From a virus: a stretch of DNA of 64,000 bases. This document shows positions 90 through 39,189 of this stretch, one piece after another (positions within the stretch are counted from its first letter, which is position 1; each line of letters opens with the position of its first letter). Made by a program: the position numbers and the translations under genes. Below the pieces are notes generated by a model. The model worked only from the letters and a program-made list of their open reading frames with translations, was not told the DNA's origin and did no database searches. Location: IMG/VR virus record IMGVR_UViG_3300045988_162176, positions 96,001-160,000 of that record, one strand, 5' to 3'.

Positions 90-578
90 TTATACTCCAT
101 TTTCTTTTTCCTTCCTCATTCTAGTAAGGTCTTCAATATATACTGGATAACCATCCTCATCAAAATATGCAAGCTTCTTATAACTCTTTACCCTTTTTTC
201 ATTCTTTTCTTGATAATCAGCATCAATTGTAATATCGGTCTTGTTATTTTTAGGGCAAAAAATTAATGCTACAGGAAGATTTTCCATTTCTACCTGAATA
301 TTTTCTACCTTATTCTCATCGACTGTTTCTGCAAAATAAAAAGTACAAGGAATAAGTTCAATATATTCAATCTTGTAGTCTTCATCTAACTGTTTACGAT
401 AAGCAAAACTTACATTTGCTTCATGGCATTTCTCAATAATTTCTTTTAATTGCTTGTTTGTAAAACAATAATCTCTATATCCCTTTTTAAGAGAACCCAC
501 AACAGAGTCTACAAGAGAAGGAAAATCAGAAGGAATACCAAAAGTTACACTAGAAACAGTCTGCATTTCACCAATCAT
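90..578 (-). CDS. hypothetical protein (162 aa)
   Basis: Uninterrupted ORF with ATG preceded by GAGGATAAGTAAA, ending in TAA. Confidence 0.6.
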   Translation of the reverse strand: MIGEMQTVSSVTFGIPSDFPSLVDSVVGSLKKGYRDYCFTNKQLKEIIEKCHEANVSFAYRKQLDEDYKIEYIELIPCTFYFAETVDENKVENIQVEMENLPVALIFCPKNNKTDITIDADYQEKNEKRVKSYKKLAYFDEDGYPVYIEDLTRMRKEKENGV

Positions 579-583
579 TTTAC

Positions 584-1336
584 TTATCCTCTATTATACA
601 AATCTTCATCAGGATTGTATCTAAATCCTTGTTGATATTTTTCTTCTGCGTCTTGACGTGCTTTTACAGCTTCTTCAAAAGTATCAAAACGTTTGCTTAA
701 TTTAGTTTCTTTATTTACAACTAAAGAAGCTTTCCATTTATTTCGCACTTTATCATAACTTACGCCTTTAACACCAGAAGTATTATTGGTATAAATTTTA
801 CAATGACCAATATTTTGGTAATGTTCTAAAGGTCTTAGGTTTTCTTTTCTGCAATCATAAGGAACGTGGTTTTTATGGTCTACATCTATTTTAGAGTCAG
901 TAATATCTAAAACAAATCTTTTTAAATGTAAACAATGAGGTTGATTATTTTTATAAACAGTTGCAATAGGATATTTTTCTTTATTATACACCCAAACATA
1001 TTCTTTTATTTTATCATAATCTTCTAAATCAAAATAAAAAGGTTCATTTTTAGAAGTATATCCTATCCCATATTCTCCACTTAAATCATATTTGTTTAAT
1101 TTTCTTCTTTTCTTTCCACTTTCAATAGCAGCTTCTTTTTGTAAACAACCACAAGACCTTGTATTACCAGAAGTTAAACTATGTGTTAAAACATCAAATT
1201 CTGTTTTATTTTCACATTGGCATTGTACATGCCATAAATTAGCACGTTTCCGATTTGGACCATGATACTAATAATCACATTTATACAAAACCTTTAAACG
1301 GCCAAAAACATCTCCAACTTTTACTGGCTCTTTCAT
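584..1336 (-). CDS. free-standing HNH endonuclease with a C-terminal AP2 DNA-binding domain (about 250 aa)
   Basis: The ORF-track fragment 584..991 extends upstream through one in-frame TAG (1268-1270) to an ATG at 1334-1336, directly after the PARP TGA. HNH-type DHKNH...N motif. AP2-like SGVKGVSYDKVRNKWKASL...RFDTFEEAVKAR. Confidence 0.7.
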
Positions 1337-2584
1337 TCATCTAATCTCCACTAAATATCGAATAGTTACTTGGTCAGGACGATAGAAAATAATTTCTGGA
1401 TTGCGAAGCATTCCCTTTTCAGGAGAAGCGTAAACACAATGGCAAGGAGGATTCTTTTTCTGAAGCACATCAAAATTAAAATGATAACACTCGGAAGTAT
1501 GTTCATAAACAGTATAAGGATTTCCATAAGCCACTTCAAAAATAGCCATGAATCCAGTATTATTACTTCCTCTTGCCCAGTAAGAACCACTTACACTTGT
1601 ATAACCAATACTCTTTCGAGCTAAAGTGCTAAAATACAATCCATCGCTAAACATCGAACCTGTATAGATAGCATTTGCGGGACGAATCTTCAAACCCATT
1701 TTAAGGATATTAAAGAAATTTTGAGACCTGCTACCATGCCACATAAGTTTAGTGTTTGTAATATTATAATCTTTAATAAAAGAATTAAATGCTTTATTAG
1801 TCTCTAAATTATTAACACTCCATGCTTTTACGAATCTATCAGAATCTCGCCCAAGCATATTTTTAATTCTGGCAACTTCATCCTGAGTGACATCTTCCAT
1901 GGTAATACCCATCTTCTGCAAAATGCTTTCAGAAGCTTTAATTTCAGAATCGGTGTCGGCAATTTTTACCTTGGGCTTATAAACTTGACCAGCCATAGTA
2001 TCAAGCAAGCTTTGTTCCTCAGAAAGCTTTTTGTCGTATTCGGAAGAATCAGAAACAAGACAGTCAGAAACGCGCTTCATCTTACGAGGAACAATAATAA
2101 ACAATTCATTCAAATTCTTGTTAAATTCCTCAACAGACCAGTTTTTGTAGTTCGCTGCAATATAGTCAATCTTTTCCTGAGCAGCATCAATCATAGCCTG
2201 AGTAACAGCTTCAGCACGAACTGAATAAGCAGATTGAATAGTCTTATTAGCATAATCCCAAAGACGTTTAACAATCTCTCTAACAGATAAATTTTGAACC
2301 AAACCAAATTCATCTACCCCGTTAGACTTGTCTTCAACTTTAGAATCAGCAATAACTTCCTGCATCAAATCAGAACGGTCAACATACCCCTTCTTCAATT
2401 TAGAAGAAAGAGTAGAATTCCATTTGGACATAGGATAAGTTTTAGTCTGAGGAGCAGCACCAACACGACCATATTCAGCCGTAAAAGTATCATCTCCATT
2501 TGGACTAATTTTGTAATATTTATTATGTCCAAGGTCTCCAAAATTAGGGTCTACAAAGATTAAATATTTGGGAGTATAATCCAT
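1337..2584 (-). CDS. poly(ADP-ribose) polymerase-like protein with WGR, helical regulatory and PARP catalytic (H-Y-E) domains
   Basis: N-terminal WGR pattern NKYYKI..FTAEYGRVGAAPQTK..KLKKGY. The C-terminus LMWHGSRSQNFFNILKMGLKIRP...YTGSMFSDGLYFS..KSIGYT...FEVAYGNPY is collinear with the PARP1 catalytic core (LLWHGSR..GYMFGKGIYFA..EVALGN). ATG with RBS TAGGAGATGG. Stop is TGA. Confidence 0.85.
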   Translation of the reverse strand: MDYTPKYLIFVDPNFGDLGHNKYYKISPNGDDTFTAEYGRVGAAPQTKTYPMSKWNSTLSSKLKKGYVDRSDLMQEVIADSKVEDKSNGVDEFGLVQNLSVREIVKRLWDYANKTIQSAYSVRAEAVTQAMIDAAQEKIDYIAANYKNWSVEEFNKNLNELFIIVPRKMKRVSDCLVSDSSEYDKKLSEEQSLLDTMAGQVYKPKVKIADTDSEIKASESILQKMGITMEDVTQDEVARIKNMLGRDSDRFVKAWSVNNLETNKAFNSFIKDYNITNTKLMWHGSRSQNFFNILKMGLKIRPANAIYTGSMFSDGLYFSTLARKSIGYTSVSGSYWARGSNNTGFMAIFEVAYGNPYTVYEHTSECYHFNFDVLQKKNPPCHCVYASPEKGMLRNPEIIFYRPDQVTIRYLVEIR

Positions 2585-2600
2585 AATTCCATCTCCTATA

Positions 2601-2638
2601 AGTAAATCTCTATGATTAGATTACCATAGAGATTTACT
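2601..2638. promoter_or_regulatory. perfect 14-bp inverted repeat (AGTAAATCTCTATG-N10-CATAGAGATTTACT) overlapping the promoter of the PARP-like gene; candidate operator or 5'-UTR hairpin
   Basis: The arms at 2601-2614 and 2625-2638 are exact reverse complements. The repeat covers the spacer, the -10 box and the transcription start of the 2618..2646 promoter. Confidence 0.5.
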
Positions 2639-2646
2639 TTTGTCAA
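2618..2646 (-). promoter_or_regulatory. sigma-70/sigma-A-type promoter upstream of the PARP-like gene
   Basis: Minus strand: TTGACA (2646-2641), 17 nt, TAATCT (2623-2618). Confidence 0.5.
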
Positions 2647-2686
2647 GGGTTTATTCAGTTATTTTTTACTAATCCAATCAGTTAAA

Positions 2687-3406
2687 TTACTGGTAGCAGA
2701 AAGTAAGATGAATCTTATAATTCTTGCTTACCTCGTCAAACTTTTTAGCATCTTCAATCGTTTCAGTAAAAACACGAAGAATCATTTCACGAACATCTTC
2801 CCAATCAAGATTACCCTTGCCACACCCAATAAAAGGCATAGCAAGATAAGAAATCTCTTCATTAATACAATACTGAGCAAGGTCTTCAATACAATGTTCA
2901 AGATTAGTCATAGTAATTGGTTCATACTTTTTATTAGCAATCATAAGTAAAAATAAATTCCGAATCCAAATAGCTTCACCAGCACAACGCTCATCAAACT
3001 TATCAGGAATCTTATCAACAATATGATAATAATTGTCAAGTCTACGAGCAGTATCACTACCCAAAGAGAGGTCAGCGGGGATACCATAACAGATATTGTA
3101 ATAAGGAGGAAGGTCGAACATATCCTTATTTACTTCTTCATACTCAACAGGATTTTCATAACTGGTATCATCGACTTCATCATCTTCATCTGCAAATTCA
3201 AGCTCACCATCATGCACCACAAGAGGACAACCACAGTTAGGACAATGCATTACCTTGGGCTTCAAAACAGAAACATAACCAGAAGTAGAAACAATCTTAC
3301 CATCTTCATCAGTAGAAGCAACTGCGGTAGTAAAATAATCCTTATCCTGAGTAGAAGTTACCTTTGGCTCATCGAACTTGTAATTGCGACTAAAAATATT
3401 AGCCAT
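2687..3406 (-). CDS. zinc-ribbon protein with a C-terminal TARG1/C6orf130-like macrodomain (putative ADP-ribosyl hydrolase)
   Basis: CPNCGCP zinc-ribbon motif. C-terminal ICYGIPADLSLGSDTARRL ... YLAMPFIGCGKGNLDWEDVREMILRVF matches the TARG1 signature (..CRMGAGIA.. / ..MPRIGCGLDRLQWENV..EEVF). ATG with RBS AAAAGGAG. Stop is TAA. Confidence 0.7.
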   Translation of the reverse strand: MANIFSRNYKFDEPKVTSTQDKDYFTTAVASTDEDGKIVSTSGYVSVLKPKVMHCPNCGCPLVVHDGELEFADEDDEVDDTSYENPVEYEEVNKDMFDLPPYYNICYGIPADLSLGSDTARRLDNYYHIVDKIPDKFDERCAGEAIWIRNLFLLMIANKKYEPITMTNLEHCIEDLAQYCINEEISYLAMPFIGCGKGNLDWEDVREMILRVFTETIEDAKKFDEVSKNYKIHLTFCYQ

Positions 3407-3426: not shown

Positions 3427-3639
3427 TTAATTAATTTTTTCACTAAGTATTCTATCTAATTCTTTTGGACACGCATCAGTCCAATTTGTAATTTGATGAC
3501 CGTCATAAGAACAAACAAAAATCTTTTTCTTCTTTCTGACTTTCAATCCTTCCTCATTATATTCCCAATCAACTGTTCCATCCATATATGGAAAATAAGG
3601 ACAATTAGGAGTACAACCTTTACATTCAATCTTAGCCAT
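3427..3639 (-). CDS. small Cys-rich protein (70 aa)
   Basis: ATG at 3637-3639 with RBS AAGAAAGGA. The track start at 3663 is an alternative-start artefact. Confidence 0.5.
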   Translation of the reverse strand: MAKIECKGCTPNCPYFPYMDGTVDWEYNEEGLKVRKKKKIFVCSYDGHQITNWTDACPKELDRILSEKIN

Positions 3640-3653
3640 CAAATTATCCTTTC

Positions 3654-5417
3654 TTAAAAACAACCCATAGTTTCTCGTACAATAGCTTTCTTAAAATCCT
3701 GTTCCCTTTTCTTTAAGACATCGTTATCTGGAAGAAGATAACAATCCGTATTTCTGGTAGTTACTGTCTTAGAAGGTTCCTTAACAAGATAGAGACCTTC
3801 TTTTGCACGAGTAGTTGCAATATAACTTAAATTCTTTTCCTGAATATTTTGTTCTTTACTGTTCCTAAAATCGTAATTAATTTTAGCTTCATTTAAAACA
3901 AAAACATTCGTAGCTTCAAGACCTTTAGCTTTATGGATGCTACAAAGTCTAACACAATTAGGAGAAGGAGTAGTATTTAACAGTTTATCAATAAAATTAG
4001 AGAATTTAGAAACACTATCAGAAGAGGCATGATTTTCAAGATATCCTTCCAAAATCTCCAACAAAAAGCTCGTATTATCTATCTTAGAATTTGTCTCCGC
4101 TACGGCTTCCAAACGCTCCTCCTCGTGTCCCCCCTCACGGACATTTTTTGAAACGATTTCAAAGAGTTTTTTATTATAATTACTTATTACTTTCTGGAGG
4201 AATTTTTCGAGTGTGCCAACCGAGGTGCATTTGGATGATAAAATCTGTCTTTTAATTGCTCCTACCATATCTTTATCTTCAATAAAAATAGGAGTTCCAT
4301 TTCGAGCTAAATCAAGCACTACCTCGGCAATCCATTTATTCTTTCTTGAAATTACCATGTCTCCTGCTTTAGCATACTCTGAAATTTTATTTTTGTCAAT
4401 AGTTTTAACAAATCCCATTGGAGCATCATCACGAGGAAGAATGGGAATCCCATATTCTCTATTTACTCTACTAAGATGAGATTTAGCACAACGATAACAA
4501 ACAGGTAAATCAAAAGTTTCTACAGGAGCAAACATTTTAGGAATTTGATTAAAAGCTTGAGCATTAGCCCCAGCAAAATTATAGATGGCCTGATGAAAAT
4601 CTCCAATAAAAACATATCTACCTTTGGCTCTTTTAATAAACTTTAAAAAATTTAATTGAATATTAGAAAAATCTTGAACTTCATCACAATAAATATTAGT
4701 ATACAAAGCCCAATAAGGAACTTCCCAATTATCATATTTCAGTTTATTAAAAGTAATCCAAAGCATATCAGTAAAATCAATTATACCTTGAGTTTCAAAC
4801 TGCTGTCTACTTTTAGTATCAAGAATTTTCAAAGTAGAAGTAATTTCACTGATATCAGGTGCAGAATAACCTTCATCCCCATAATATAAAAATAATACAT
4901 GGTCATCAATTAAACGAGACACATCCTTGTTTGAAGACATATCTGTAAGAGTTAATCTACACAAATTATAAAGATTTACATAATTATCTTTTAAGAAAAC
5001 TCGTTTGGCAAATTCAATATATCTACCATAACGCTTTGTAATTTCCTCATCAAGAATCTTATGTGGTTTAAAATTATCCAAATTTACAGTTCTCTTAGAA
5101 CGCTGAGAACCAAAACCTTTTGGTTTTTCTCCTGAATCCTTAGATTCTTGTTCTACATTATAAAGCATAATAGAATATGCTAAAGAATGCATCGTCATAA
5201 CCTTAGTTTTGGGATTCTTAATCTTCTTCTTAAACTCTTCAACTACACTTGCATTAAATGCAATATATAAATCAGAAGTCTTTGAATGCTCAGAAAGCAT
5301 ACAGGCAGTTGTTGACTTACCACTTCCAGCCAAAGCATTTACAAGCATATTACTTTGAGGATTATTAAGAAAAAAATCTAAAATATCTTGCTGATATGTG
5401 CTTGGCTTAAAGCCCAT
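3654..5417 (-). CDS. UvrD/PcrA-like superfamily-1 DNA helicase
   Basis: Walker A ALAGSGKSTT, IGDFHQAIYNFAGA, SIHKAKGLEA, ATTRAKEGLYL. ATG at 5415-5417 with RBS GGAGTTG. Confidence 0.8.
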   Translation of the reverse strand: MGFKPSTYQQDILDFFLNNPQSNMLVNALAGSGKSTTACMLSEHSKTSDLYIAFNASVVEEFKKKIKNPKTKVMTMHSLAYSIMLYNVEQESKDSGEKPKGFGSQRSKRTVNLDNFKPHKILDEEITKRYGRYIEFAKRVFLKDNYVNLYNLCRLTLTDMSSNKDVSRLIDDHVLFLYYGDEGYSAPDISEITSTLKILDTKSRQQFETQGIIDFTDMLWITFNKLKYDNWEVPYWALYTNIYCDEVQDFSNIQLNFLKFIKRAKGRYVFIGDFHQAIYNFAGANAQAFNQIPKMFAPVETFDLPVCYRCAKSHLSRVNREYGIPILPRDDAPMGFVKTIDKNKISEYAKAGDMVISRKNKWIAEVVLDLARNGTPIFIEDKDMVGAIKRQILSSKCTSVGTLEKFLQKVISNYNKKLFEIVSKNVREGGHEEERLEAVAETNSKIDNTSFLLEILEGYLENHASSDSVSKFSNFIDKLLNTTPSPNCVRLCSIHKAKGLEATNVFVLNEAKINYDFRNSKEQNIQEKNLSYIATTRAKEGLYLVKEPSKTVTTRNTDCYLLPDNDVLKKREQDFKKAIVRETMGCF

Positions 5418-5422
5418 TATAA

Positions 5423-6541
5423 TCAACTCCTAACCATTTCATAACATTCATGTAATACTCTTGCAGTCTCAATTACATCTTCAACTGTATTCTGAGTTTC
5501 ATTCATAGAAATTCTAATTTCTCCACGAATATAATCTTCTGGAATCTTCATAGCTTCTAACACAGCAGATGCTTTCATATCTCCTGTATTACACGCACTT
5601 CCTGTCCCTACATAAATTTCCTTTTCATCTAACATAGATTGAAGAATTTCTCCCTCTACATTGTGGAAGCAAACACACACTGTAGAATTAATACTATTTG
5701 CAGGAGAAACAATCATATAATCATTTGGTTCAAATAATTTACCAAGCTCTTCAAGGAAAGCTCTCTTCATTTTCTTACAAGCTAAATCTTTTTCCTTTTG
5801 ATGTGCAACAGCTTTATCAACAGTTAAAGCTAAAGCATGAATATAAGGAATATTTTCAGTACCAGCTCTACGATTACTTTCTTGGTCTCCACCATAAATT
5901 AAAGGCTTAATCTTCTCAACAGGAAAAGTGTCTTTTGAAAAATAAATAAAGCCAACACCTTTAGGAGAATGCACCTTATGTCCACTAAAAGTAGCAATGT
6001 CAGCCATGGGTCTAATATCAATAGGAACATTACCTAAAGCCTGTGTCATATCACAATGATAATACATATTAAGTCTATGAGCTAAATCCATATGTTCACG
6101 AGGATTAAAAATTTCTCCTGTCTCATTATTTACATACATCCAAGACAAAAGAAATCCACTATAATCTCCCCACAGAAAACCCAACTCTTCACTTTTCTCT
6201 GTAACTTTAACAGCATCAATAAGATAATTCTTATCAATAATTATTGACTTGGGATTTTCTGTGATATTATGATGCTCATAAGGACTACATAAACATTTGC
6301 TTTTTTGAGCTAAAGCCCACGCATTACCTTCGCTACTACCAGAAGTAAAATAAATTTCTTCTGGAAAAGCACCTATAACATGTGCAATTTTTGCACGACT
6401 TTCCTCAATTAAATTTTTACTCTTGCGCCCTAAACCATAGGTCGTGCTTGCATTACCCCAATATTCAGCTAAATCATCTTTAATAATATCAATGATTTCA
6501 GGCGATACAAAAGTTGTAGCCGCATGGTCTAAATAAATCAT
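5423..6541 (-). CDS. class-V aminotransferase, NifS/IscS-type cysteine desulfurase
   Basis: IYLDHAATT N-terminus, PLP-lysine motif SGHKVHSPKGVGFIY, catalytic-Cys loop GTGSACNTG. ATGA overlap with the upstream gene. Confidence 0.85.
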   Translation of the reverse strand: MIYLDHAATTFVSPEIIDIIKDDLAEYWGNASTTYGLGRKSKNLIEESRAKIAHVIGAFPEEIYFTSGSSEGNAWALAQKSKCLCSPYEHHNITENPKSIIIDKNYLIDAVKVTEKSEELGFLWGDYSGFLLSWMYVNNETGEIFNPREHMDLAHRLNMYYHCDMTQALGNVPIDIRPMADIATFSGHKVHSPKGVGFIYFSKDTFPVEKIKPLIYGGDQESNRRAGTENIPYIHALALTVDKAVAHQKEKDLACKKMKRAFLEELGKLFEPNDYMIVSPANSINSTVCVCFHNVEGEILQSMLDEKEIYVGTGSACNTGDMKASAVLEAMKIPEDYIRGEIRISMNETQNTVEDVIETARVLHECYEMVRS

Positions 6542-7822: not shown

Positions 7823-7862
7823 AATATGCTCCATATTAAAAATATGATTCTACCTATGAATA

Positions 7863-7892
7863 AGTATATCATAAGTAGAACCATATTGTCAA
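7863..7892 (-). promoter_or_regulatory. sigma-70/sigma-A-type promoter
   Basis: Minus strand: TTGACA (7892-7887), 18 nt, TATACT (7868-7863). Confidence 0.6.
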
Positions 7893-14969: not shown

Positions 14970-16898
14970 TTATCCTTTCATAATAGAATCTGCATCTAAA
15001 ACATTATACCAACGTCTTAAATTAAATTCCTTTTTCCTAATTTTTTGATAACTACTTACAGGAGTATAAAAACCTACTACTCTTGCATATTGGTCAGCCA
15101 CAGGTTTTCCACAAATAGGACAGGTTTGAGTTCCAATAAAAGAATGTTTATCTTCACAAACATTAATCTTAGTCGTAAAAGCGAAATAAATTACACCTTT
15201 AGAAGCAACATAATTAAGCATGTCCCATGCACTTTCTTTGGTAGCAAAACGATTTTCAATGTCAATATGAGCAATACATCCGCCGCCGCATTTTTCATCA
15301 AGTACACTACCTAAACGACACTTCTCTTTAATAGTGCATTGTTCAGTTAATGGAATCCATTGATTTGAGTAAATAAAATATTTATCTTGCTCAAACAAAA
15401 GATTATCTGCGGTACAAATTACACCAGCGCAATTTTCCCGTGGAATAGATTCAACATTAAAAGAAAAATCACATTCAAAACTATCTTTTACCTCATTGAT
15501 AGTATCAAGAATCTGGCAAGCAAATTCTAATCCTTCTTCTGTATAATATTTATTACCAAACTCATCAGTATTAATTAAACCAAAAGAATCAATAACCTCA
15601 TACATTCCAAGAATACCAATAGTACAATATTGCTTGTCAAGTTCAACCGCCCCTTCTTGATAATTAGGAAGCAGACCTTTTTCTATATTGCGCTCTAAAA
15701 TATGACGCATACTAGTTAATGCCTTGCAATCCAAAAGAACACGGTCTTTAAGAAGTTCAATATATTTCTTTTTATTAAATTTGGTCTCATATGCAATACG
15801 CATAAGATTAATTGTACTTACACGACAAGAACCAACAGACAATGCTGTACCACCAATAGAATTAACAAAAGCATCAAGCTTTTGAGTATCTGAAAGCAAA
15901 CGACAGCAGTTTGAAAGAACCCCAACATTATCAGACACGAAAAAATTAGAATCAGACCATTTAATATTATGATAACAAGCCCATCGAGCAGTTTCTTCAT
16001 CTTCAAATTTACCATCTTTATAGAGAAGAGAATAAGTTAAAACGGGGAAAGTAAACATATTTTCACTGCGAATATCACTTACCACATCCATAAACAAACG
16101 CTGGCACTTCATAATTTCTTCAATTTGGTCGATAGCGAAAGACCCGTCTGGAAATTCCAATCCACCAAACAAAGATTCAAGATAAGGACGGTCAAAAATA
16201 CTTACATTTGTAAAAGCACACTGGTCAATTCTAAGGAATGGCTGATTTAATCTGTAAACGAATTTCTGAAAATATTGTCTTAAATAAGTCTCTGGGTCTT
16301 TAAAGTAATGCCCATTCTTTATATCCATTTTCCAGAAATAATAAGCCCAAATAATTACATTTGGGAGGCCAACGGCCCGAGACTAACGGTTACTGAGGAA
16401 TGAAACAAACTCAATAACATCATCAAAATATGTATCCAAGTGCTTAGGAGGCTGGTTGTTATACCCTCCAAGGAAAAACAATCCTTCTCTTGCCAAACGA
16501 GTTAAATCATTCGCCCAGCAATAAGGAAAATAACTTGCAGTGGCAGAATCGTTAAGATAAAATCCTTTGCTAAACTCCTATTCTAACCAAGCCTTAGCGG
16601 TACGAAGCCCCCATTTTTTCTTAATTTCAAGGAAAATTTTATTTAAACCAAAAAGCTTATCTTCGCTTTTCCCTTTTTCAGTCATAAAAGAACGAATATC
16701 TCTATGACTAGCATTTGCATTAGGGTCGATGGTAGCATCTGCCATTGTGCTTTGATTTACGAATTTATCTAAGAATTCTGAAAAATCTAACTAGCTAGAA
16801 TGAACCCCATTAATATATTCAAAATCTTCACCATATTTCTTTTTTAAGTCTTCAAGACATCTTTCAAAATCTTTTGTTAAACGAAGTGAAATGTCCAT
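14970..16898 (-). CDS. nrdD: anaerobic (class III) ribonucleoside-triphosphate reductase
   Basis: The C-terminal Zn site CPICGKP and glycyl-radical motif ARVVGFYTPV are present. The N-terminal 190 codons join only if three in-frame TAGs (16791-16793, 16578-16580, 16383-16385) are read as sense. ATG at 16896-16898 with RBS GGGAGGAAAA. Confidence 0.9.
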
Positions 16899-16916
16899 AT
16901 AAAATTTTCCTCCCTT

Positions 16917-21834: not shown

Positions 21835-24297
21835 TTATTCCTCTTGCACTTCATCTTTTTCTTTCCAATCTTTTAGTTGCCTAATTAAAGCTCTACGCTC
21901 TTCGTCTTCTTTCCTATGAAGAATATTATACTATTCTCTAAGCTACCTATATTCCTATTTCAAGAATTCAGGTAAAAATGTTCTTTTAGTTGAAACGAAA
22001 TTTGTATCAATAGAACGTCTTAAAGCCTTAGTTTGAGCTACAAGTACACACAGCTTTTTAGCTCTGGTTAACAAAGTATAAATCTGTTGCTGACAAAGCA
22101 TCATTGGAGGAGTGCTATAATCTATTACCCCAATAATTACAGGACAACCAGAACCTTGATATTTATGCGTGGTACAAGCGTATCCTAAAATCAAATGCTC
22201 TTTAACTTCTTTGTGCTTTAAAATAATTGGAGCATCGCCCAAATCAAAATCAACAATTGCATTTTCATAATCAATACTTGTAACTACGCCAGTCCATCCA
22301 TTATACATAGCTGTTTGTGCTCCACTTGTATCAAAAACTTTATAATTGTTTTTAATACACATTACTTTATCGCCTTCTTGAATCCAAAAAGACCTGTCAT
22401 TTCCAGAAGCATCTTTCATCTTTTGGACATAAATTCTTGGACGAGATTCATTTAAATCAACAGGGTTAATTAATTTCTGAATGTCAAGATTTAAATTGTG
22501 AACACAAGCATCTCCACGTTCTTTGACAGGAGAAATAATTTGAATCTTTTCAATATCTCCGTTTACAAGAGGACTATTAAAATATTTCTCAAAGTAAGCA
22601 ATGGTATCTTTTCTATCATCATCTTTTTCATTTCGAATATCAAGTACCATATCTTGAAGGTCTCCACGAGTTTCAATGCCCTCATAATCAGTGTCTTGAT
22701 ATAATTGAATACCATTTCTTACATTGTAAGCTGTAGTTAAAATACCTGAAGCCTTTGCTTGTCTATGAACTTCTTTTAATTCAACAGTAGGAATCTCCTT
22801 GCTGTTAATCATATCCGCTGCTAAATTGAGGGAACCAATAGATTCAAGCTGTCCCATATCGCCAAGCATTAAAAGCTTACTACCTGTAGGAATTGCTCTA
22901 ATTAAGTCAAGAAAAATCTCTCCCCCCACCATACTAACTTCATCTAAAATAATGATATCGTAAGGTAATGGATTATCTTCTCCATAAGAAAAACCACAAC
23001 CACCAGTATATCCAAGAAGCCTGTGAATGGTAAATCCCTCTTTACCAGTAACCTCTTGTAATCTTGCCGCCGCTTTACCACTTAAAGCACATTGAGCAAA
23101 AGTATATTCATCAAGGACAGACAAAATACCTGTAACTAACGAACTTTTACCAGAACCCGCTAAACCAGAAATTACGCAAACTTGTTTTTCAATTCCCAAT
23201 TTAATACCATCAATCTGCTCTTGAGTGAATTGAAAGCCTTGTTTTGTTTCAGCCTTTTTAATCTTTTCTTCAAAATCATTAGCAACAAAATAATTGTTGC
23301 CTTGAAGCAATCTTTTAAGATGATAAGCAATATCTTTTTCAAGATTCCAAAAGCTCATTAAATAAACTCTTCGACCTGATTTGGTATCACCTTCTTCAAC
23401 ACGAATTAATTCTTCATCTTGAAGCTCTTTTATAGCTTTACCAACATTATTTACAAGATTGCCATCTTCATCTTCTACTGTTAAACTTTGTTTTCCACCA
23501 AGGTCTTCATACAAAGAGCCCATAAGTTCACCAGCAGACACCCAAGAATGACCTTCTTCACCCTGAGCATCAAGATACCATAAAATATAAGATTTAATTC
23601 TTTTCGTATCATAAGTCTTATATCCACTTCTCAAGGCTACTTTATCAGCGGTAAAAAATCCTACTCCCTTAATATCTTTTACTAACTGATAAGGATTGTT
23701 TTTTACGACATCAATTACTTTTTGTGGAGCTTTATATTTTTCAATTAGTTTAGAAATAAAGTTCGGGGAAAAACCAACCTTATCAAGCTCTAAATATACA
23801 GTAGACATATCTTTACTGGCTTCAAAACGCTCAATAATACAGTTGGAAATATAATCTCCAATACCTTTTGCTTTCTTCAAAGTTTCTATATCATGGTCAG
23901 CAATAGCTTGTAATGGGTCCTCACACACAGCAAATAATTCATCCATCTGACCTTCTGACAAAAAGGTTCTTAAGAAAGCCCTTTGATTCTTCTGATTAGA
24001 AAAATCAATATCTTTATTATAATAAACCAATTGATACTGAACACCGTATTTAGGATGCTCAACTTCTTTGCCTAATAATACATAGGCGGAATTGGGGTCA
24101 ATTCCATCGGTATACTCTCCTGTAAAAGTAACCTCACCATAAACACTCATAGTAGGTGAACCTTGTTCTACCTCAAGAATATTCCAAGAAACTATTCCCC
24201 AATTTTTGCCATCTGACCCAATTCCAGTACTCGGATAGAGGGTCTTAGAATGAGACGCTTTTATCTTTATAAATTTTTCTTCGGTATCAACATTCAT
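21835..24297 (-). CDS. RecD2-like SF1B DNA helicase
   Basis: Walker A GLAGSGKSS, Walker B IIILDEVSMV, GDMGQLESIG, TTHKYQGSG. The track ORF ends at TAG 21955-21957. The frame stays open through TAGs at 21943 and 21931 to TAA at 21835-21837, adding 39 aa. Confidence 0.85.
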
Positions 24298-25711
24298 CGT
24301 CAACCCTCTCTACATCTATTCTGTCAGAAATCATTTCAAGGTCTCCATTATCATCAATACCTTTAATCAACTGAACAGAATGTTTATACAAACTATCTTT
24401 ATACTGTCTTGGGACGAAGTTTTCTCCTCTCCTAAAACCAGTAACAAGAAGTTTAGTTCCACGCTGGAACCAAGATTTCTCAAGTACAGTTTTTGTTCCA
24501 TCATCATTCATTTGAGAAATCTGTCTATTATAAAAGTTAAATTGACCTTTATAAAACTTTATATCACAAACTCCATCAGGAGTCAATAGTGTAACTGTAT
24601 TTCTATTAGTGTCTTTATCAAGAACCGTACCACAAATTCTTTTAAGAACAAAACGAGCCTTCTCTTGGTCATGCCAATAATATTTGTAGGCCACTTCTGG
24701 CTCTTCTGGTAAATTCTCAAAAGGTACTATATTGTATTTCTCCTTGTTTACATGAGCAAGTTCATGTTCATGATAATACATACAAAGAGAATCCATTTCC
24801 CACTTAGAAAGACTTCCAGATGCTTTTTCATCCCACACAGCTTTAAACTTTCCTTCATTCACAGCTTCAAGCATCTTAGGGTCACTTAAGACATTATCTT
24901 TAAAATCTACCATAAGTTTATTAAAAACTCGGTCTAAGCTACCTCTTTTAACAACTCTTTGACCATCATCTCCCCAATCATAATCTTTTTTATCAACCAT
25001 ATCGTTGAGGAAATATTTTTCAAAATAAGGCCATGCAAATTTGTTTTCAAGTACATAATAAGCAGTACTTGCACTTTTACCTATTTGTTTATAAAAGAAT
25101 TTCTTCTGGAAAACGTAATTTCTAAATCTATATAATCTTAATTCGAACTTCTTTTGATTTTCAGTTAACAAATCAAGATTGACTAAATCTTCGATATTAG
25201 AGATGTTAAGAGACTTAACAGGACTTGAGATAAATCTAATAAAGTCTTCCATAATAGCTCTTCTATCTTTTTTCTCAAGATTATCAAAACACCGCGCCTT
25301 GATAAGAGAAATCATAGCCGTATCACCAAACTTATTTTCTTTAGATTCAGATTTGTATTTCTGCATCTTCTCGTAAAAATCCCACATCGAAGAATAAGTT
25401 TGATTATCAATAATAGCTTTTGCAATAGAAGTTCCAATACCTTGAATTGGTTTTAAACCATAAACAATTTCATTTTTCTCAACGTCAGGGTGGAAACCAA
25501 ATCTAACACGGTTTACGTCAGGTAATGCTACTGTAACACCTTCTTTTTTGATATTACCAATAGCTTTACTAATTTTACCATAGTTGGTATTTCCATCTTC
25601 ACCGCCAGAATCAGAAATCAAATTAGCAGTATTCCAATAAATAACAGGATAATGATAAGCAAGATTGGCTTCTTGCAAACCAACGATTGAATAGGCTAAT
25701 GTATGTGCTTT
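24287..25711 (-). CDS. dnaE: DNA polymerase III alpha subunit, exon 3 (C-terminal about 474 aa)
   Basis: Begins KAHTLAYSIVGLQEANLAYHYP, collinear with E. coli ..[24 protein letters not shown]. The exact 5' boundary is unresolved. Confidence 0.75.
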   Translation of the reverse strand, partial: KAHTLAYSIVGLQEANLAYHYPVIYWNTANLISDSGGEDGNTNYGKISKAIGNIKKEGVTVALPDVNRVRFGFHPDVEKNEIVYGLKPIQGIGTSIAKAIIDNQTYSSMWDFYEKMQKYKSESKENKFGDTAMISLIKARCFDNLEKKDRRAIMEDFIRFISSPVKSLNISNIEDLVNLDLLTENQKKFELRLYRFRNYVFQKKFFYKQIGKSASTAYYVLENKFAWPYFEKYFLNDMVDKKDYDWGDDGQRVVKRGSLDRVFNKLMVDFKDNVLSDPKMLEAVNEGKFKAVWDEKASGSLSKWEMDSLCMYYHEHELAHVNKEKYNIVPFENLPEEPEVAYKYYWHDQEKARFVLKRICGTVLDKDTNRNTVTLLTPDGVCDIKFYKGQFNFYNRQISQMNDDGTKTVLEKSWFQRGTKLLVTGFRRGENFVPRQYKDSLYKHSVQLIKGIDDNGDLEMISDRIDVERVDDEC

Positions 25712-26919
25712 TATTAAAATTAAAACTGACTATTTTTTACGGATTTTCTGTGTCTAAGTTTTGGCCTACTTAGCATCCGCAAGCTGTTTCCAAGAGCGTA
25801 TCAATAGCTCCCGTACTCTTGGTCTAACCCAAGATAGTCGATACATCATTTTCAAAACAAATTAAAACTTTTTTCTATTAGTTGTTAAAGGATATTTATA
25901 ATCCTTATTATAATAAGATGCTCCGCTATTAATTTTTTTAATGGTACTATAACTTTTTTGATATTTTTCGGCAATCTCGGTAGTCTTCAAATTGCTATTC
26001 ATTAAATCTTCTTGAACAGGTTTTACCCATGAGTTGAAATTATGCAATCTTGAATTTCCTCTAATAGACAAAGGATATTGTAACTCATCATTCTTCCAAA
26101 TTTTACCATTATTAATCATTGAAAGCATCCGAACAGATTTAATATTCCATTTCTTTGCTAATTCTGTATATGTTAATTTCCCTTCTTGTAATTCTCTTTG
26201 AATTTCTTTTTGCTCTTGACGAGTGAACATATCAGAATGCCCATCATGTATATAATCATGTAATGGATAAGTTAAATCTCCTCTCTTAAAATTTAATCCC
26301 ACGTTAATATTAGTAAGAAGACTATCAGATAATTTAGGAGAATATTTTTCTCTTATTTCTTTCATTGGAATAGCTTCAATTAACATTTGCTGAATATCTT
26401 TAATTTCTTCCATCGTGAAAATTTTACTTAAAGCTACTTTTTGCTCAAATGTTAACTTTTCTTTTTTTGCTCCATTTTGCCGACCAAAATCGGTATTGTA
26501 GCCTTTGCTCCTATTAGTAGAATCATAGAAAGAAATATAAAATCGCTCTCTTTCGTCTACATATTCTTGACTTTCTTCTTCTGGAATTTCTTCTATAATT
26601 TCTTTTGAGAAATTATCCCAACCATATTTTCGAATGGCGTAATACAAATGTAAAATATATTCATGAGCTTTGGGATTAAAAGCACAAGATTTATGATTTC
26701 TCATACGAGCTTCAAAATTATTTGTTTGCCCAATATAAACTTTTTGATTCTTTAAATTAGTAATTTTATATATAACCATGGATTCCTCCTTTCGGTAGTA
26801 ATTTGTTTTGATTTGACACGAGATTTTACCCTCGTTAGCTAATTTCTAAGATTGCCAATCCTTAAAAGAAATTAACCCCGTTGATGAAACGGTTAAGCTT
26901 GTGAGCGCCACAACAACGC
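25712..26919 (-). mobile_element. group-I-like intron (about 1.2 kb) in dnaE carrying a GIY-YIG homing endonuclease
   Basis: It separates ..MNRGYGFN from KAHTLAY.. within the conserved GYGFNKSH motif. The GC-richer structured flanks contain R/S-like elements (GGGAGCUAUUGA ... AAAAAAUAGUCAG). Confidence 0.65.
25862..26779 (-). CDS. GIY-YIG homing endonuclease (I-TevI-like)
   Basis: N-terminus IYKITNLKNQKVYIGQTNNFEARMRNH. Has its own RBS GAAAGGAGGAATCC. 305 codons with no TAG. Confidence 0.85.
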   Translation of the reverse strand: MVIYKITNLKNQKVYIGQTNNFEARMRNHKSCAFNPKAHEYILHLYYAIRKYGWDNFSKEIIEEIPEEESQEYVDERERFYISFYDSTNRSKGYNTDFGRQNGAKKEKLTFEQKVALSKIFTMEEIKDIQQMLIEAIPMKEIREKYSPKLSDSLLTNINVGLNFKRGDLTYPLHDYIHDGHSDMFTRQEQKEIQRELQEGKLTYTELAKKWNIKSVRMLSMINNGKIWKNDELQYPLSIRGNSRLHNFNSWVKPVQEDLMNSNLKTTEIAEKYQKSYSTIKKINSGASYYNKDYKYPLTTNRKKF

Positions 26920-27081: not shown

Positions 27082-27299
27082 CTCTGCTTCTTACAATTTC
27101 TTGTAAGCTCGGCGTACATTATTAACTCTAATGAGTTAAAGGACACTCTTGGATGGATTATATTTATTCACCATCTACGCTCTACGATACTTAACAACCT
27201 TTCGCAATTTGTTAAGTTATCTCGGTATTTCCATTTTAAAGGGTCCACCGATTTTGCCCTTTTCATTTTACTTGTCACCAAGTAAACGGCCCAAAATTA
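27082..27299 (-). mobile_element. ORF-less group-I-like intron (about 218 nt) in dnaE
   Basis: Exon 1 stops at ..ADKLRKSIA+TAA inside the conserved aD.LRRAMGKK motif. The intervening RNA contains the P-like element CAAAUUGCGAAAGG. The proposed junction follows the U/G rule (GCU| ... GAG|AUA). Confidence 0.5.
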
Positions 27300-29711
27300 A
27301 GCGATACTTTTCCTAAGCTTATCAGCCCACAGCAAATCAAAACCACCAATTTCAGGGTCTTGAACTGCCATCATAAAGTCTTCTTGGTTAGGTAACAAAC
27401 CATAACTCTTCTTAGCATATTTACAAACGACTTCTTGTTCATGTTTAGTCAAACCATAATCATCCATCTCTTTATACCAAAGAGTAATATCTTTCTTATA
27501 ACGGCCAAAACGTTCAAGAGGTGTTTCTGCCCGTGGAGAAGGAGCCATAAGTCTCATTACTGAGTTCAAAGCAGATAAATCCACTAAACTTTCAGGTTTA
27601 CCTATTGCAACAGCTTGATATCCTGTTTGTTTTTCCATTTGGAAGAATGACATAACTTTATGTTCATTTAGCATTTTCCAAATTTCGGGATTATTTCTTT
27701 CTATTTTATAAACACCCAAATATTTTTCATAAGTAGACTTTAAATCACCTTGCCATTCAAGCCTACCATCTTCCATAAGAAGATTCATACAAACGTGTTC
27801 TTTTTGAAGAGCGTCAATAGAAAGCAAATCCCATTTAATAAGAGATACTTTTTCGTCAGCGTGTAAGTCAAATTGAGTAATAATATCTCCACTTGTTGTC
27901 TTCATTAAAGCAGCATGGTCTACAACATCTGTCGCTGAAAGAACTACACCACCAGCATGAGAACCGACACCACTTACTAACCCTTCAATATTTTGAGCAA
28001 CTTCCCAAACATCAGGATACTCATTAGTCATTAAGTTAACAAACTCTTTATCAGGACGTAGGTTGTTTTCTTCATCACCATAAAAGCATTGCTTTAAAGT
28101 AAATTGAATACCACGCTCCTGACCAATATGCGAACTTAACATCTGTCCAATTTCAGGTGGATAGCTTAAGCCACGACAAGCAGTTTGAATTGCAACTTTG
28201 GCTTTCATCGTAGAAAGGGTTTGAACTTTCATAACACGACGATTTCCTGCTCTCTGGTCATCTCCACAATACTTGCGTTGCAAATAATGAATAACATCAT
28301 CACGGTAAGCATTCTCGAAATCTACGTCGATATCTAACGGGCTAACACGTTGAGGATTAAGAAAGCGCCAATGTTTCGTTGGGACTTCTTCTCTTAAAGG
28401 ATTAACCTGAGTAATACCCAAAATATACAGAAGAATAAATCCCAAACCAGAACCACGAGAAGGACCAACTAAAGAACCACAAGCCCAACACGCATTTACT
28501 AAGTCACGAGTCTGTAGCAAATAAGCAGACCAATGAGCATGGTTAGCTTCTGAACTTGCTTTAATGGATTCAAGGCAAGTTTGAATTGCATCATAAGTTT
28601 CTTTATTTGCTAATTCATCAGAATCTTTTTCAAGACGCTTTACAATCTCTCTAACAAGATGTCTATCAGCGTTGTAGTCTGAATTAAAGAACCATTCCAA
28701 CATAGGAATATCTTTGAAGTATTTTTTAGACAATTCCGAATCAGGCTCAGTCAAATCGTCTGGCTCATAAGGAATTTCCAAATTAGCAAACAAAGTATAT
28801 TCTTGAACCATGTCATAAATTAACATGGTATTATCTAAACCTTTTTGCACGACTTCTGGCGTCAAAAATTCATCCATATAAGAATGAATTTCTTCTTCTG
28901 ACATCATATAAGTTGTGGCATAAAATTCTCCAACCTCACGTTCTTTACCACTATCTTCATTAGATTTAAGAAAAGCTTCATGTACTTTTCTATCTTCTCT
29001 TTTGGGATAGTGACTGTCAGTGGTAATAATATATGGAATATCAAGTTCAGAAGACAATTCTACTAAAGCTTGATTTACAATAATTTGTTCTTCGCTCTTT
29101 GATGGTTGTAATTCCAAAAAGAAATTACCATGTCCAAAACATTTATCAAGTCTTTTTAACCACTTTTTAACACCCGTGTAATCAGGCTGTAAAGGATTTT
29201 GTCTATAAGAATCCAAAATTAATTTTGGACAACGACCACCAAGACAAGCAGTTGAACCAATAATATGACCTCTATCAGATTCAACAACTTCAAACAAATC
29301 TTCATAATAAGTTGGAGTACGAATATTAACATAAGTAAAGGAATTATCAATCCATGCTCTTGTACTTAATTCTCTTATTTGCTTATGTCCAATAGCATCT
29401 TTAGCCAACAAAATGAAGTGATAAAAAATATATTCTTTATCTTCTTCAATGCTTTTTCGATTGCAAAGATAAATTTCATTACCTAAAATAAGTTTATAAT
29501 CTTTCCACTTATCAGGATTTTTCTTTCGCAAATCGTCTATTTGAGTTAATGCTTCAACGTGTGCGGCAATACAGTCATGGTCTGTAATAGCAACACCTTT
29601 ATGACCAAGCTCCTAAGTATATGTGAGAAGACCCTTGACAGTGTTAGTGCTGTCAAGGAAACCTCTCGTATTGGAGCCTATGTCTGTGTGATTATGTACA
29701 CCTACAAACAC
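27300..29711 (-). CDS. dnaE: DNA polymerase III alpha subunit, exon 1 (PHP, palm and thumb; about 804 aa)
   Basis: GTG start 7 nt after AAGGAGAG. PHP motif VFVGVHNHTDIGS...GVAITDH. There is one in-frame TAG at 29613-29615 (GLLTYT[TAG]ELGHKGVAITDH). Confidence 0.85.
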
Positions 29712-38238: not shown

Positions 38239-39189
38239 TTATCCTTCCCATTCAGAAAGAGGCTTTAGCGTTATATAATCTAAACCCGTAAGTTCATCAA
38301 TTATTTTTTTACAATCAGTGTAAACGATTTGTGGATAAGTTGTTAAACTGTCCCAACTACCTTTATAATTGCTTTTACAAAATTCTTTCGATATTTTTAT
38401 ATCTTCATTCACAGGATGTAAAAAAACACAATTTCCCGAATAATATTTTGTATTATCTCCATCTTTATAACTATCCCCTTTTGTCCAAACAGAACCATTT
38501 TGTATTTCCTTTACACTGGCTGAAAAAATTATCGTTTTATATTTTCCAGCTCCTAATTGACTATCATCTGTCACCCCTGCAAAAATTCCATTTCCCGTTA
38601 TTGTTTGCTCTTGTCTATCACCATTATATTTCCAATATGTTTCTATTCCACAAACATTTGGCGGTAACTCTTCTATATCAAGTACATCAATGTTTTTTAA
38701 ACTGAAAGCTATAGAGGATTTCTTTGCATATTCATATTCTTGGTATGAATGTACATTCAAATAAAAACAATTTCTGCCATTTGAAGTAATTAATCTACTA
38801 CCAGTAACTCCATACCCCGAACTTCCTGCTGTATATTTCATCACAGACCCATCTGGTTTTGTAAAAGTCGCAATATCATCATTAAATTCTAATTTAATTC
38901 CAATCGCCTTAAATGCCTCAACCAAAAATTGTTCCCCCGGCTCACCCGAGCCGATATAGTGTTGTAAAGCACTTGAATAATACGCATCTCGTTTTGCAAG
39001 TGCAACAGCATTTACATCCATAGCATGAATAAAACCGTTAAATGATTCTTCGTTAACTATAATAGAACTATCCAATAATTTATAAAAAAAATCGTATGTA
39101 TATGCCCTGTCATAATTATTTCCCATTGATACCATTCTTTGTAATAATCGGACCAAAATATATTTGTATTGTCCAGAAGTGTAAGACAT
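38239..39189 (-). CDS. hypothetical protein (316 aa), translationally coupled to uppS
   Basis: Uninterrupted ORF with a TAATG overlap with uppS. Contains no TAG codons. Confidence 0.55.
   Translation of the reverse strand: MSYTSGQYKYILVRLLQRMVSMGNNYDRAYTYDFFYKLLDSSIIVNEESFNGFIHAMDVNAVALAKRDAYYSSALQHYIGSGEPGEQFLVEAFKAIGIKLEFNDDIATFTKPDGSVMKYTAGSSGYGVTGSRLITSNGRNCFYLNVHSYQEYEYAKKSSIAFSLKNIDVLDIEELPPNVCGIETYWKYNGDRQEQTITGNGIFAGVTDDSQLGAGKYKTIIFSASVKEIQNGSVWTKGDSYKDGDNTKYYSGNCVFLHPVNEDIKISKEFCKSNYKGSWDSLTTYPQIVYTDCKKIIDELTGLDYITLKPLSEWEG

Follow-up and report, generated by a model that had tools for sequence, protein, structure and literature searches.

Poly(ADP-ribose) polymerases (PARPs) have been reported from phages before. 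Perina et al. listed phage PARPs in 2014 (PMC4245714), and Iyer et al. (2021 and 2022) discussed them as possible poly-ADP-ribosylating counterparts of T4 Alt/Mod. Among bacterial enzymes, the Herpetosiphon PARP needs DNA, and the PARPs of Herpetosiphon and C. difficile make poly(ADP-ribose) (PAR) in vitro (PMC8120803, PMC5966428); according to reviews, there is little evidence for in vivo activity of prokaryotic or phage PARPs (PMC8120803). Here we analyze a PARP gene and the adjacent gene for a macrodomain protein resembling TARG1, both located in 64,000 nucleotides of viral DNA (IMG/VR record IMGVR_UViG_3300045988_162176, positions 96,001 to 160,000). This whole stretch is called the window, and positions are counted from its first letter. 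A first-pass annotation, made by a model from the letters alone, had proposed that the two genes form a 'writer' and 'eraser' of ADP-ribosylation.

By tblastn, genes annotated as 'poly(ADP-ribose) polymerase' were found in Cellulophaga phages phi4:1 and phi17:2, Klebsiella phage vB_KpM_FBKp34 and Xanthomonas phages XacN1 and Xoo-sp13, and homologues that are unannotated or otherwise named were found in Stenotrophomonas phages and other Klebsiella phages. The protein database held 2,014 PARP relatives at E <= 1e-5, and 177 stretches of IMG/VR matched. Phage PARPs are rare, as the first-pass annotation held, but they had already been annotated and reviewed. The enzyme class is known in phages; the conserved pairing with a macrodomain gene, the series of losses of the TARG1 catalytic dyad and the exchange of the catalytic domain as a cassette are new. 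A phage PARP/TARG1-like gene pair was not found described in the literature searched.

Our preferred reading, to which we give a probability of about 0.5, is that the two genes would form a module with a role in replication or repair, in which a WGR-PARP acts on nucleic-acid ends and a remodelled macrodomain protein serves as an ADP-ribose reader or an atypical hydrolase.

The PARP and its macrodomain partner

All genes of the window are on the minus strand, including the open reading frames (ORFs) of the PARP and the macrodomain protein, in which the following parts were delimited (ART, ADP-ribosyltransferase):

1337..2584, minus strand: PARP gene, 415 aa, with WGR domain, helical region and ART catalytic domain; TGA stop, no in-frame TAG
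2384..2566, minus strand: WGR domain, aa 7-67 (Pfam, alignment with the PARP2 WGR)
1880..2299, minus strand: helical middle region, approximately aa 96-235, in the position of the PARP helical regulatory domain
1343..1855, minus strand: ART (PARP catalytic) domain, aa 244-414 (Pfam, PDB, phage alignment)
1736-1738, 1634-1636 and 1394-1396, minus strand: codons of the catalytic residues H283, Y317 and E397, respectively (phage PARP alignment)
2687..3406, minus strand: macrodomain protein gene, 239 aa; TAA stop, no in-frame TAG
2690..3145, minus strand: TARG1/ALC1-like macrodomain, aa 88-239 (TARG1 PDB and profile matches)
3146..3406, minus strand: N-terminal extension, aa 1-87, with a variable region, a Cys knuckle and an acidic linker
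3227-3247, minus strand: Cys knuckle H54-C55-P-N-C58-G-C60 (family alignment)
2936-2938 and 2813-2815, minus strand: dyad positions A157 (TARG1 K84) and G198 (TARG1 D125), respectively (alignment)

Both enzyme classes named by the first-pass annotation were recovered, the WGR-PARP by Pfam, PDB and profile searches and the TARG1-class macrodomain by PDB and profile searches. Pfam recognized the PARP domain at 4.5e-20 (72.4 bits, cut-off 26.7, residues 244-414) and the WGR domain at 1.1e-5 (25.9 bits, cut-off 22, residues 7-67), and PHROG 23333 matches over the full length (2.4e-57). PARP2 and PARP1 were at the top of the single-sequence PDB search (approximately 3e-13). A profile of 7 diverse phage PARPs matched full-length PARP2 at 8e-32, collinear from the WGR domain to the C-terminus, and the PARP1 helical-plus-catalytic fragment at approximately 3e-30. 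As predicted, the catalytic His, Tyr and Glu (H283, Y317 and E397) correspond to the PARP1/2 triad in the alignment, and all three are invariant in the 7 phage PARPs. However, the Glu is not in the EVA.GN.Y motif to which it had been assigned; it is E397 in 'LRNPEIIFY', aligned with PARP2 'NYNEYIVY'. Invariance in the phage alignment extends to G284, K324, S325 and Y328 of the NAD+ site. The WGR motif reads Y38-G39-R40 in the window protein, and the NNKYY and SKLKKGY motifs are conserved. By sequence, the gene encodes a bona fide WGR-PARP that is catalytically intact.

Other parts of the earlier description need revision. Of the full WGR, helical and catalytic architecture, the first and last domains stand, while the helical region has no Pfam PARP_reg match and, searched alone against the PDB, gave no PARP match. 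With hhalign it aligned to the PARP1 helical domain at E 4.4e-4 and a probability of 34% (with an approximate PARP1 sequence). 'LFIIVPRKM' aligns collinearly with PARP1 'FYTLIPHDF' both in the full-length profile and in hhalign, and helices appear in this region of a low-confidence PARP model. Chain-forming activity is not readable from the H-Y-E triad alone, which is necessary but not sufficient for chain synthesis; the PARP domain of PARP4, listed as a mono-ADP-ribosyltransferase in the search library, also matches the phage PARP profile. The term 'eukaryote-like' was overstated, since the likeness partly reflects what is crystallised, and the closest cellular relatives found are bacterial chromosomal PARPs with 34-39% identity.

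For the macrodomain protein, the best single-sequence PDB match was TARG1/OARD1 (6e-9, residues 92-216). A profile of 28 family members matched the whole TARG1 domain at 3e-33 (residues 8-143 of 146), DarG at 1.5e-10 and BT1257 at 2e-5. The pocket scaffold is kept, with D95 (TARG1 D20), D112 (D37), P191, G194, G196 and W202. The TARG1-type catalytic dyad is absent: K84 is replaced by A157 and D125 by G198. TARG1 strips ADP-ribose from Glu/Asp and from nucleic-acid phosphate ends, and even the canonical protein is not a PAR-chain glycohydrolase (PMC7050489). The label of glycohydrolase, or 'eraser', was therefore not upheld. The PARG signature GGG-X6-8-QEE is absent from the six reading frames of the window.

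The zinc ribbon said to be fused to the macrodomain is also incomplete, with only C55, C58, C60 and the non-invariant H54 forming a single Cys knuckle. A full CxxC...CxxC ribbon is present in relatives (P0189, P0190, P0193, P0197, P0201 and P0211), where 'FGDY...W.C.CP.CG...CK.C' is a module that is also N-terminal in the neighbouring HNH endonuclease. From this alignment, we take the N-terminal extension of the window protein to be a vestigial zinc ribbon.

Loss of the dyad is graded among relatives. Both K84 and D125 are kept in 9 of the 16 PARP-linked macrodomains examined and only the Lys in 3; the window clade and the UvrD-syntenic relatives in this set have neither. The nine canonical partners are mostly minimal proteins of approximately 140-170 aa, two of them with N-terminal extensions. 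In the wider family, 89 of 142 representatives are canonical (K84, D125, G43) and about 45 are dyad-less; the latter are the nearest relatives of the window protein. Viral TARG1-like proteins mostly without catalytic residues had been noted by Perina et al. in 2014 (PMC4245714). At the substituted positions, the dyad-less proteins share a signature of P35, T44, H/K124 and N/G125 (TARG1 numbering).

Such losses might mean that the module is degenerating, with the macrodomain protein a non-functional relic and the PARP acting alone, and the absence of both catalytic residues together with the truncated ribbon would fit this. Decay is nevertheless most improbable. Conservation is highest in the macrodomain core, where mean pairwise identity is 82%; it is 60-68% in the N-terminal region, the linker and the C-tail. 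In the pocket, the positions equivalent to TARG1 D20, P25, D37, P118, G121, G123, L127 and W129 show equal conservation in the 45 dyad-less and the 89 canonical representatives, and the new signature is coherent (P35, T44, H/K124, N125). These three observations argue for a change of function, and the remodelling looks like one rather than like decay. Nor would dyad loss prove inactivity, by analogy with SCO6735, a protein of the same class that lacks both dyad residues and is yet an active hydrolase (PMC7050489, PMC9411070), its activity requiring Gln85 at the Lys position (PMC9411070). The window protein may thus be an ADP-ribose reader or an atypical hydrolase. A loop-1 Asp/Glu (TARG1 position 43) was considered as a general alternative catalytic acid and rejected, as D or E occurs there in only 15 of the 45 dyad-less representatives.

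A second macrodomain of 163 aa was found in sibling genomes approximately 5 kb downstream of the PARP, past the left edge of the window (locus L010, 12270-12758; also in L008, L015, L019, L020 and L088). It is DarG/SCO6735-like, with PDB matches of 3.6e-8 to 5.3e-8 and a PADLOC DarG match of 1.3e-17. Its 'NMFSQ' aligns with SCO6735 'NMIGQ', which puts Gln at the catalytic-Lys position. From these residues, a true hydrolase is plausible, for example against DarT-type DNA ADP-ribosylation.

Conservation of the gene pair among phages

The pair lies in a conserved gene order with the following neighbours:

5423-6541, minus strand: class-V aminotransferase/NifS-like gene, beside UvrD in relatives; an unusual auxiliary gene
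3654..5426, minus strand: UvrD-like helicase gene (Pfam UvrD 3.8e-19), the conserved upstream neighbour of the macrodomain-PARP pair
3427..3663, minus strand: orf78, a small Cys-rich ORF of 78 aa between UvrD and the macrodomain gene, in conserved synteny
584..1336, minus strand: free-standing HNH-AP2 homing-endonuclease gene of 251 codons, with an in-frame TAG at codon 23 (1268-1270)
90..578, minus strand: orf162, the conserved downstream neighbour, directly after the PARP where the HNH gene is absent

We scanned 130-odd PARP loci from viral and genome collections (numbered with the prefix L) by profile hidden Markov models (HMMs) and clustered the PARPs at 70% identity. A TARG1-like macrodomain gene is directly upstream of the PARP in 10 of 44 clusters, and no cluster is mixed. 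At 50% identity, the ten collapse to two groups. In 17 of 17 closely related IMG/VR loci, the order is NifS-like gene, UvrD, orf78, macrodomain gene, PARP, (HNH) and orf162. Thg1 lies downstream in sibling genomes, and the order UvrD, intervening gene, macrodomain, PARP is also present in more distant relatives. Among the macrodomain-positive loci are phage-like contigs in assemblies of Clostridia, Ruminococcus, Aminipila and Treponema, whose PARPs share 41-47% identity with that of the window. One phage clade has inherited the two genes as a pair, and the conserved adjacency without mixed clusters argues for their functional coupling. Since the partners in related phages are minimal canonical TARG1-like hydrolases, the ancestral module was probably a writer plus eraser pair, as judged from their residues.

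The macrodomain protein could instead work independently of the PARP, as a counter-defence against DarT or other ARTs or as a hydrolase or sponge of ADP-ribose-derived signals, with adjacency reflecting shared regulation. One locus speaks for this. In L159 (Logan SRR33013272 contig, 90.7 kb), the order NifS, UvrD, small ORF, macrodomain is kept with Thg1 downstream, and a PARP was not detected in the 11 kb retrieved; its macrodomain protein has 326 aa, is dyad-less and carries a full zinc ribbon. A small ORF fills the slot of orf78 in L154, L158 and L159. DarG models also match the window protein (PADLOC 2.4e-9; NCBIfam 4.7e-9, spanning only 51 residues at 36 bits against a curated cut-off of 250), and thymidine-linked ADP-ribose on DNA can be cleaved by TARG1-class enzymes (PMC9411070). 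Adjacency, however, is kept down to approximately 41% PARP identity in the ten unmixed clusters, the catalytic Lys of DarG is missing as well, and siblings hold a better DarG/SCO6735-like candidate in the second macrodomain. We therefore consider independent action rather unlikely.

Other PARP lineages have other neighbours, such as DNA ligase, RNA ligase or CCA-adding enzyme genes. Pfam found no macrodomain gene beside the PARPs of Cellulophaga phi17:2, Klebsiella FBKp34 and XacN1. In FBKp34, gp105 ('putative phosphatase', L002:2019-2534), 2.4 kb upstream of the PARP gene gp111, gave a weak macrodomain-like match (hhalign probability 89%, C-terminal half only), which is a lead only. In the largest macrodomain-less group (L044-L087, 31 loci), the PARP overlaps by 6 nt a conserved gene of approximately 240 aa (for example L065:2306-3091), which matches PHROG 3668 'hydrolase' at 4.6e-19 and has no Pfam or PDB match; it may be an alternative PARP partner. 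This group is flanked by an RNA ligase gene and, in approximately 18 loci, by a DNA-ligase-like gene.

Mobile elements, codon use and regulation

The 3' part of the PARP gene has a history of its own:

1337..1865, minus strand: exchanged ART-domain cassette (DNA identity against siblings and the L017 lineage)

In comparison with siblings (L009), DNA identity of at least 90% extends down to approximately 1865, falls to 50-60% over the ART domain and recovers to 88-100% in orf162; the boundaries of the cassette are sharp. The L017 lineage shows the opposite, its ART domain being 75-87% identical and its flanks 55-65%. Protein identity between the two ART alleles is 47-59%, against 95-100% for their backbones (L009 and L013 compared), and the window allele is shared, at 87-93% identity, with a lineage in which the remaining genes are approximately 50% identical. 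H-Y-E is kept in both. The macrodomain gene does not co-vary with the ART allele, and one macrodomain allele (97-99% identical) was found with both, which fits recognition of the product and not of the enzyme.

The HNH-AP2 gene abuts the PARP as the first-pass annotation had noticed, its ATG following immediately on the PARP TGA, and runs from 1336 to 584 through one TAG. It matches PHROG 99 (1.4e-32), with Pfam HNH_3 and AP2 matches below the cut-offs. It is present in 6 of the 17 close loci (L004-L008 and L014) and precisely absent in 11, where orf162 begins 4 nt after the PARP. It is a mobile insertion by this comparison, with a predicted homing function. We also noted in L011, L013, L014, L016 and L020 (approximately 4965-6000) a 1-kb insert with a truncated GIY-YIG ORF between the macrodomain and PARP genes, and in L011 (1287-3995) an intein-like insertion in UvrD, at '...GDYHQ' followed by CQPAGTKIKLIDG. 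The locus is a hotspot for selfish elements. The mobility suggested earlier therefore holds for the HNH gene and the ART-domain cassette but not for the PARP/macrodomain module as a whole.

The TAG of the HNH gene led back to the genetic code of the phage, for which the following stretches are relevant:

40864-62969 (late region), 14970-16916 and 584-1336, minus strand: apparently TAG-recoded stretches (ORF readthrough)
24287-25678 and 27297-29531, minus strand: DNA polymerase, a split gene, with a GIY-YIG homing-endonuclease gene (25862-26779) between the two ORFs
39189-39848, minus strand: undecaprenyl-diphosphate-synthase homologue (Pfam Prenyltransf 4.3e-70), an unusual auxiliary gene

Taking TAG as sense brings minus-strand ORF coverage up to 92%, from 70%, and joins the pieces of the late region (40.8-62.3 kb) into very long ORFs; readthrough ORFs have 1,160-2,471 codons and carry 13-22 TAGs in frame. 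TAG is apparently a sense codon in this phage, with Gln as the probable amino acid judging from codon exchanges. TAG23 is kept in 6 of 6 HNH copies, and a second TAG is present in L005 and L014 at a codon that is CAA (Gln) in the other copies. A pseudogene was ruled out for HNH by the conservation of this TAG in six diverged copies, the TAG/CAA exchange and the gain in coverage; likewise, 992-1336 (346 bp) is not intergenic and forms the 5' part of the HNH gene. Recoding could restrict HNH expression to late infection. Standard gene calling breaks many genes of this phage. Rfam and tRNA scans of the window gave no match and no tRNA gene.

The source is a large uncultured gut phage of anaerobes, with clade contigs of approximately 215 kb. 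Near-identical proteins are encoded on metagenomic viral contigs of 150-221 kb, one of them the GenBank entry 'MAG TPA: Bacteriophage sp.'; one sibling contig was binned with a Clostridium metagenome-assembled genome, and the phage encodes an anaerobic ribonucleotide reductase. Megablast of the first 6 kb against deposited phage genomes gave no match, that is, the region is absent from them at >= ~85% identity. Genes for replication, repair and RNA repair are grouped in a block that makes up the first 40 kb of the window. They include those for ThyX, an NAD-dependent DNA ligase, a nucleotidyltransferase, NrdD, RNA ligase, a PNK-like kinase, a RecD/ExoV-like helicase, RecJ, DnaB and DNA polymerase. 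The PARP, the macrodomain gene and most replication/repair genes are TAG-free and the late genes TAG-rich; for the PARP and macrodomain genes, this fits expression before recoding takes effect. With sigma-70-like promoters nearby, the region looks early or middle, in line with the early placement proposed before.

Early expression would also suit a host take-over or counter-defence system, in which the PARP modifies host RNA polymerase, translation factors or defence nucleases in the manner of T4 Alt/ModA/ModB, and the macrodomain protein limits self-modification or removes host-imposed ADP-ribose. Such a role for phage PARPs was proposed by Iyer et al. (PMC7824862), and cassettes swapped between flanks that are 90-100% identical are a pattern typical of conflict genes. 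The exchange could, however, be passive co-conversion beside homing endonucleases. Its WGR, helical and ART regions are arranged as in the PARP1-like PARPs of DNA repair (Clade 1), as are those of most bacterial PARPs (PMC4245714), and the genes conserved around it encode a helicase, ligases and RNA-repair enzymes and not head or injection proteins. On balance this role is somewhat unlikely.

Upstream of the PARP, promoter-like hexamers and a perfect inverted repeat of 15-17 bp had been described, and both are present:

2600..2646, minus strand: promoter-like site in a hairpin, with TTGACA at 2641-2646, a 17-nt spacer and TAATCT at 2618-2623
2623-2639 and 2600-2616, minus strand: perfect hairpin arms, followed by the ribosome-binding site AGGAGA at 2592-2597
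7835-7892, minus strand: second promoter-in-hairpin, TTGACA-N18-TATACT, with the -10 in the loop, a 19-bp stem and a T-run after it

The macrodomain-PARP spacer is 102 bp. The hexamers match 6/6 at -35 and only 3/6 at -10. A perfect 17-bp hairpin (-21.4 kcal/mol, z = -7.5) has the -10-like hexamer in its loop. The arrangement is common to the more distant L017, L022 and L023 with different arm sequences, and the arms of L023 include G.U-compatible changes. The hairpin at 7835-7892 (-24.8 kcal/mol, z = -7.2) has the same design and again other arm sequences. From this layout, a promoter/stem-loop cassette of the PeSL kind is possibly at least as good a reading as the 'operator' proposed earlier.

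A separate promoter-like element for the PARP, and a two-gene arrangement of an ART with an ALC1-class macrodomain as in DarTG, would be in keeping with a toxin-antitoxin-like or exclusion module in which a toxic PARP, acting through NAD+ consumption or DNA/protein modification, is countered by the macrodomain protein as antidote, for superinfection exclusion or addiction. We regard this as very unlikely, given that the pair is embedded in the conserved replication/repair synteny of a large phage, that the macrodomain protein has lost its catalytic residues and has no DarG-like C-terminal toxin-binding domain, and that the phage's own ligase depends on NAD+.

Proposed mechanism and comparison with described systems

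In the preferred reading, a replication/repair module of WGR-PARP and remodelled macrodomain protein, binding of the WGR domain to ends or nicks of DNA (or RNA) would activate the PARP, as is the case, in analogy, for PARP1-3 and the Herpetosiphon PARP. In favour of this reading are the intact active site of the PARP, the conserved linkage and pocket of its partner, and the surrounding repair and replication genes, with ligase or CCA-adding enzyme genes beside the PARP in other phage lineages as well. Once active, it would ADP-ribosylate itself, nearby repair/replication proteins or nucleic-acid termini. The macrodomain protein of the window lineage might bind the product as a reader or adaptor, or remove it as a non-TARG1 hydrolase in the manner of SCO6735; the partner would thus have shifted from eraser towards reader or a new mechanism, and the second, DarG/SCO6735-like macrodomain may do the erasing. 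A more specific version, which we think unlikely, has breaks activating the marking of nucleic-acid ends, with the PARP modifying termini of phage DNA or RNA, or the proteins bound there, in the course of replication and repair, the dyad-less protein with its vestigial zinc ribbon recruiting the UvrD-type helicase and ligases as a reader, and the ART domain being swapped under host counter-pressure. The recruiting role would be like that of ALC1 and APLF, the readers of eukaryotes, and if this version were true it would establish, for the first time outside eukaryotes, a signalling circuit of PARP writer and reader.

Several points weigh against the replication/repair module. Homology of the helical domain is weak, and autoinhibition and DNA-dependent activation would follow only by analogy. 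AlphaFold2 models of both proteins are unusable (pLDDT 42.5 and 51.5, from shallow alignments), so the geometry of the remodelled site is not given by them. No TARG1-like macrodomain gene lies within approximately 6 kb in 32 of the 44 PARP clusters, which include chromosomal PARPs of Spirosomataceae, and 2 further clusters have one only 2.4-4.5 kb upstream; the TARG1-like HMM would miss other hydrolase types. L159 keeps the macrodomain gene in the same synteny without a PARP, and exchange of the ART cassette between diverged phages would suit a conflict gene better than a repair factor with a housekeeping role. Phage PARP biochemistry was not found in the literature searched.

The locus may help to find out what prokaryotic and phage PARPs do. 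A conserved TARG1-like macrodomain gene followed by a WGR-PARP in a defined phage clade predicts a shared substrate. The partner series from canonical dyad through K only to no dyad allows a change from hydrolase to reader, or of mechanism, to be tested, and the two ART alleles swapped on an otherwise identical backbone are a natural experiment on target specificity or escape from host pressure. Members are available in workable isolates, Ruminococcus sp. YE282 and Klebsiella phage vB_KpM_FBKp34.

The element before the PARP has some likeness to described promoter cassettes. PeSL cassettes of T4-type phages (PMC2839356, PMC4122927) likewise combine a sigma-70-like promoter with a strong stem-loop in intergenic positions of a plastic early region. 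In the window, the -10 is in the hairpin loop, there is no T-run before the PARP, and the arms differ between the two copies.

The PARP resembles eukaryotic PARP2 and PARP3, minimal PARPs that DNA breaks activate, being collinear over the WGR, helical and ART regions with identical catalytic and NAD+-site residues. It differs from them in a Tyr for the WGR Trp, a barely recognisable helical domain, and a segment between the 'EVAxGN' strand and the catalytic Glu that is approximately 20 residues shorter and unaligned. Bacterial and phage WGR-PARPs have the same order of WGR, (helical region) and PARP domain and the same H-Y-E triad; annotated and uncultured phage PARPs are 24-39% identical to the window protein over almost the full length. 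Bacterial PAR systems have been described with PARG (PMC5966428, PMC8120803), whereas the window clade pairs its PARP with a TARG1-like macrodomain gene.

The macrodomain protein shares with human TARG1/OARD1, a terminal ADP-ribose glycohydrolase of the ALC1-like class, the adenine-binding Asp, the 'MPxIGCG' diphosphate loop and the 'L.WE.V' helix; loop 1 is changed from 'GAGIA' to 'GSDTA', and 87 N-terminal residues are added. SCO6735, BT1257 and DarG, bacterial ALC1-like hydrolases acting on DNA-thymidine ADP-ribose, belong to the same macrodomain class. Where SCO6735 has Gln in place of the Lys, Ala is found in the window protein, and T, N, S or A occur across the dyad-less clade. In contrast to DarG, it has neither the C-terminal DarT-binding domain nor the catalytic Lys80 (Ala), and its neighbour is a PARP and not DarT. 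In described pairs of ART and macrodomain, namely DarT-DarG, SirTM-Zn-macro and bacterial PARP with PARG, a writer is likewise linked to a gene for an ADP-ribose-processing macrodomain. Here, however, the writer is a WGR-PARP, the partner is TARG1-like and not PARG, and the pair is located in the replication/repair block of a phage.

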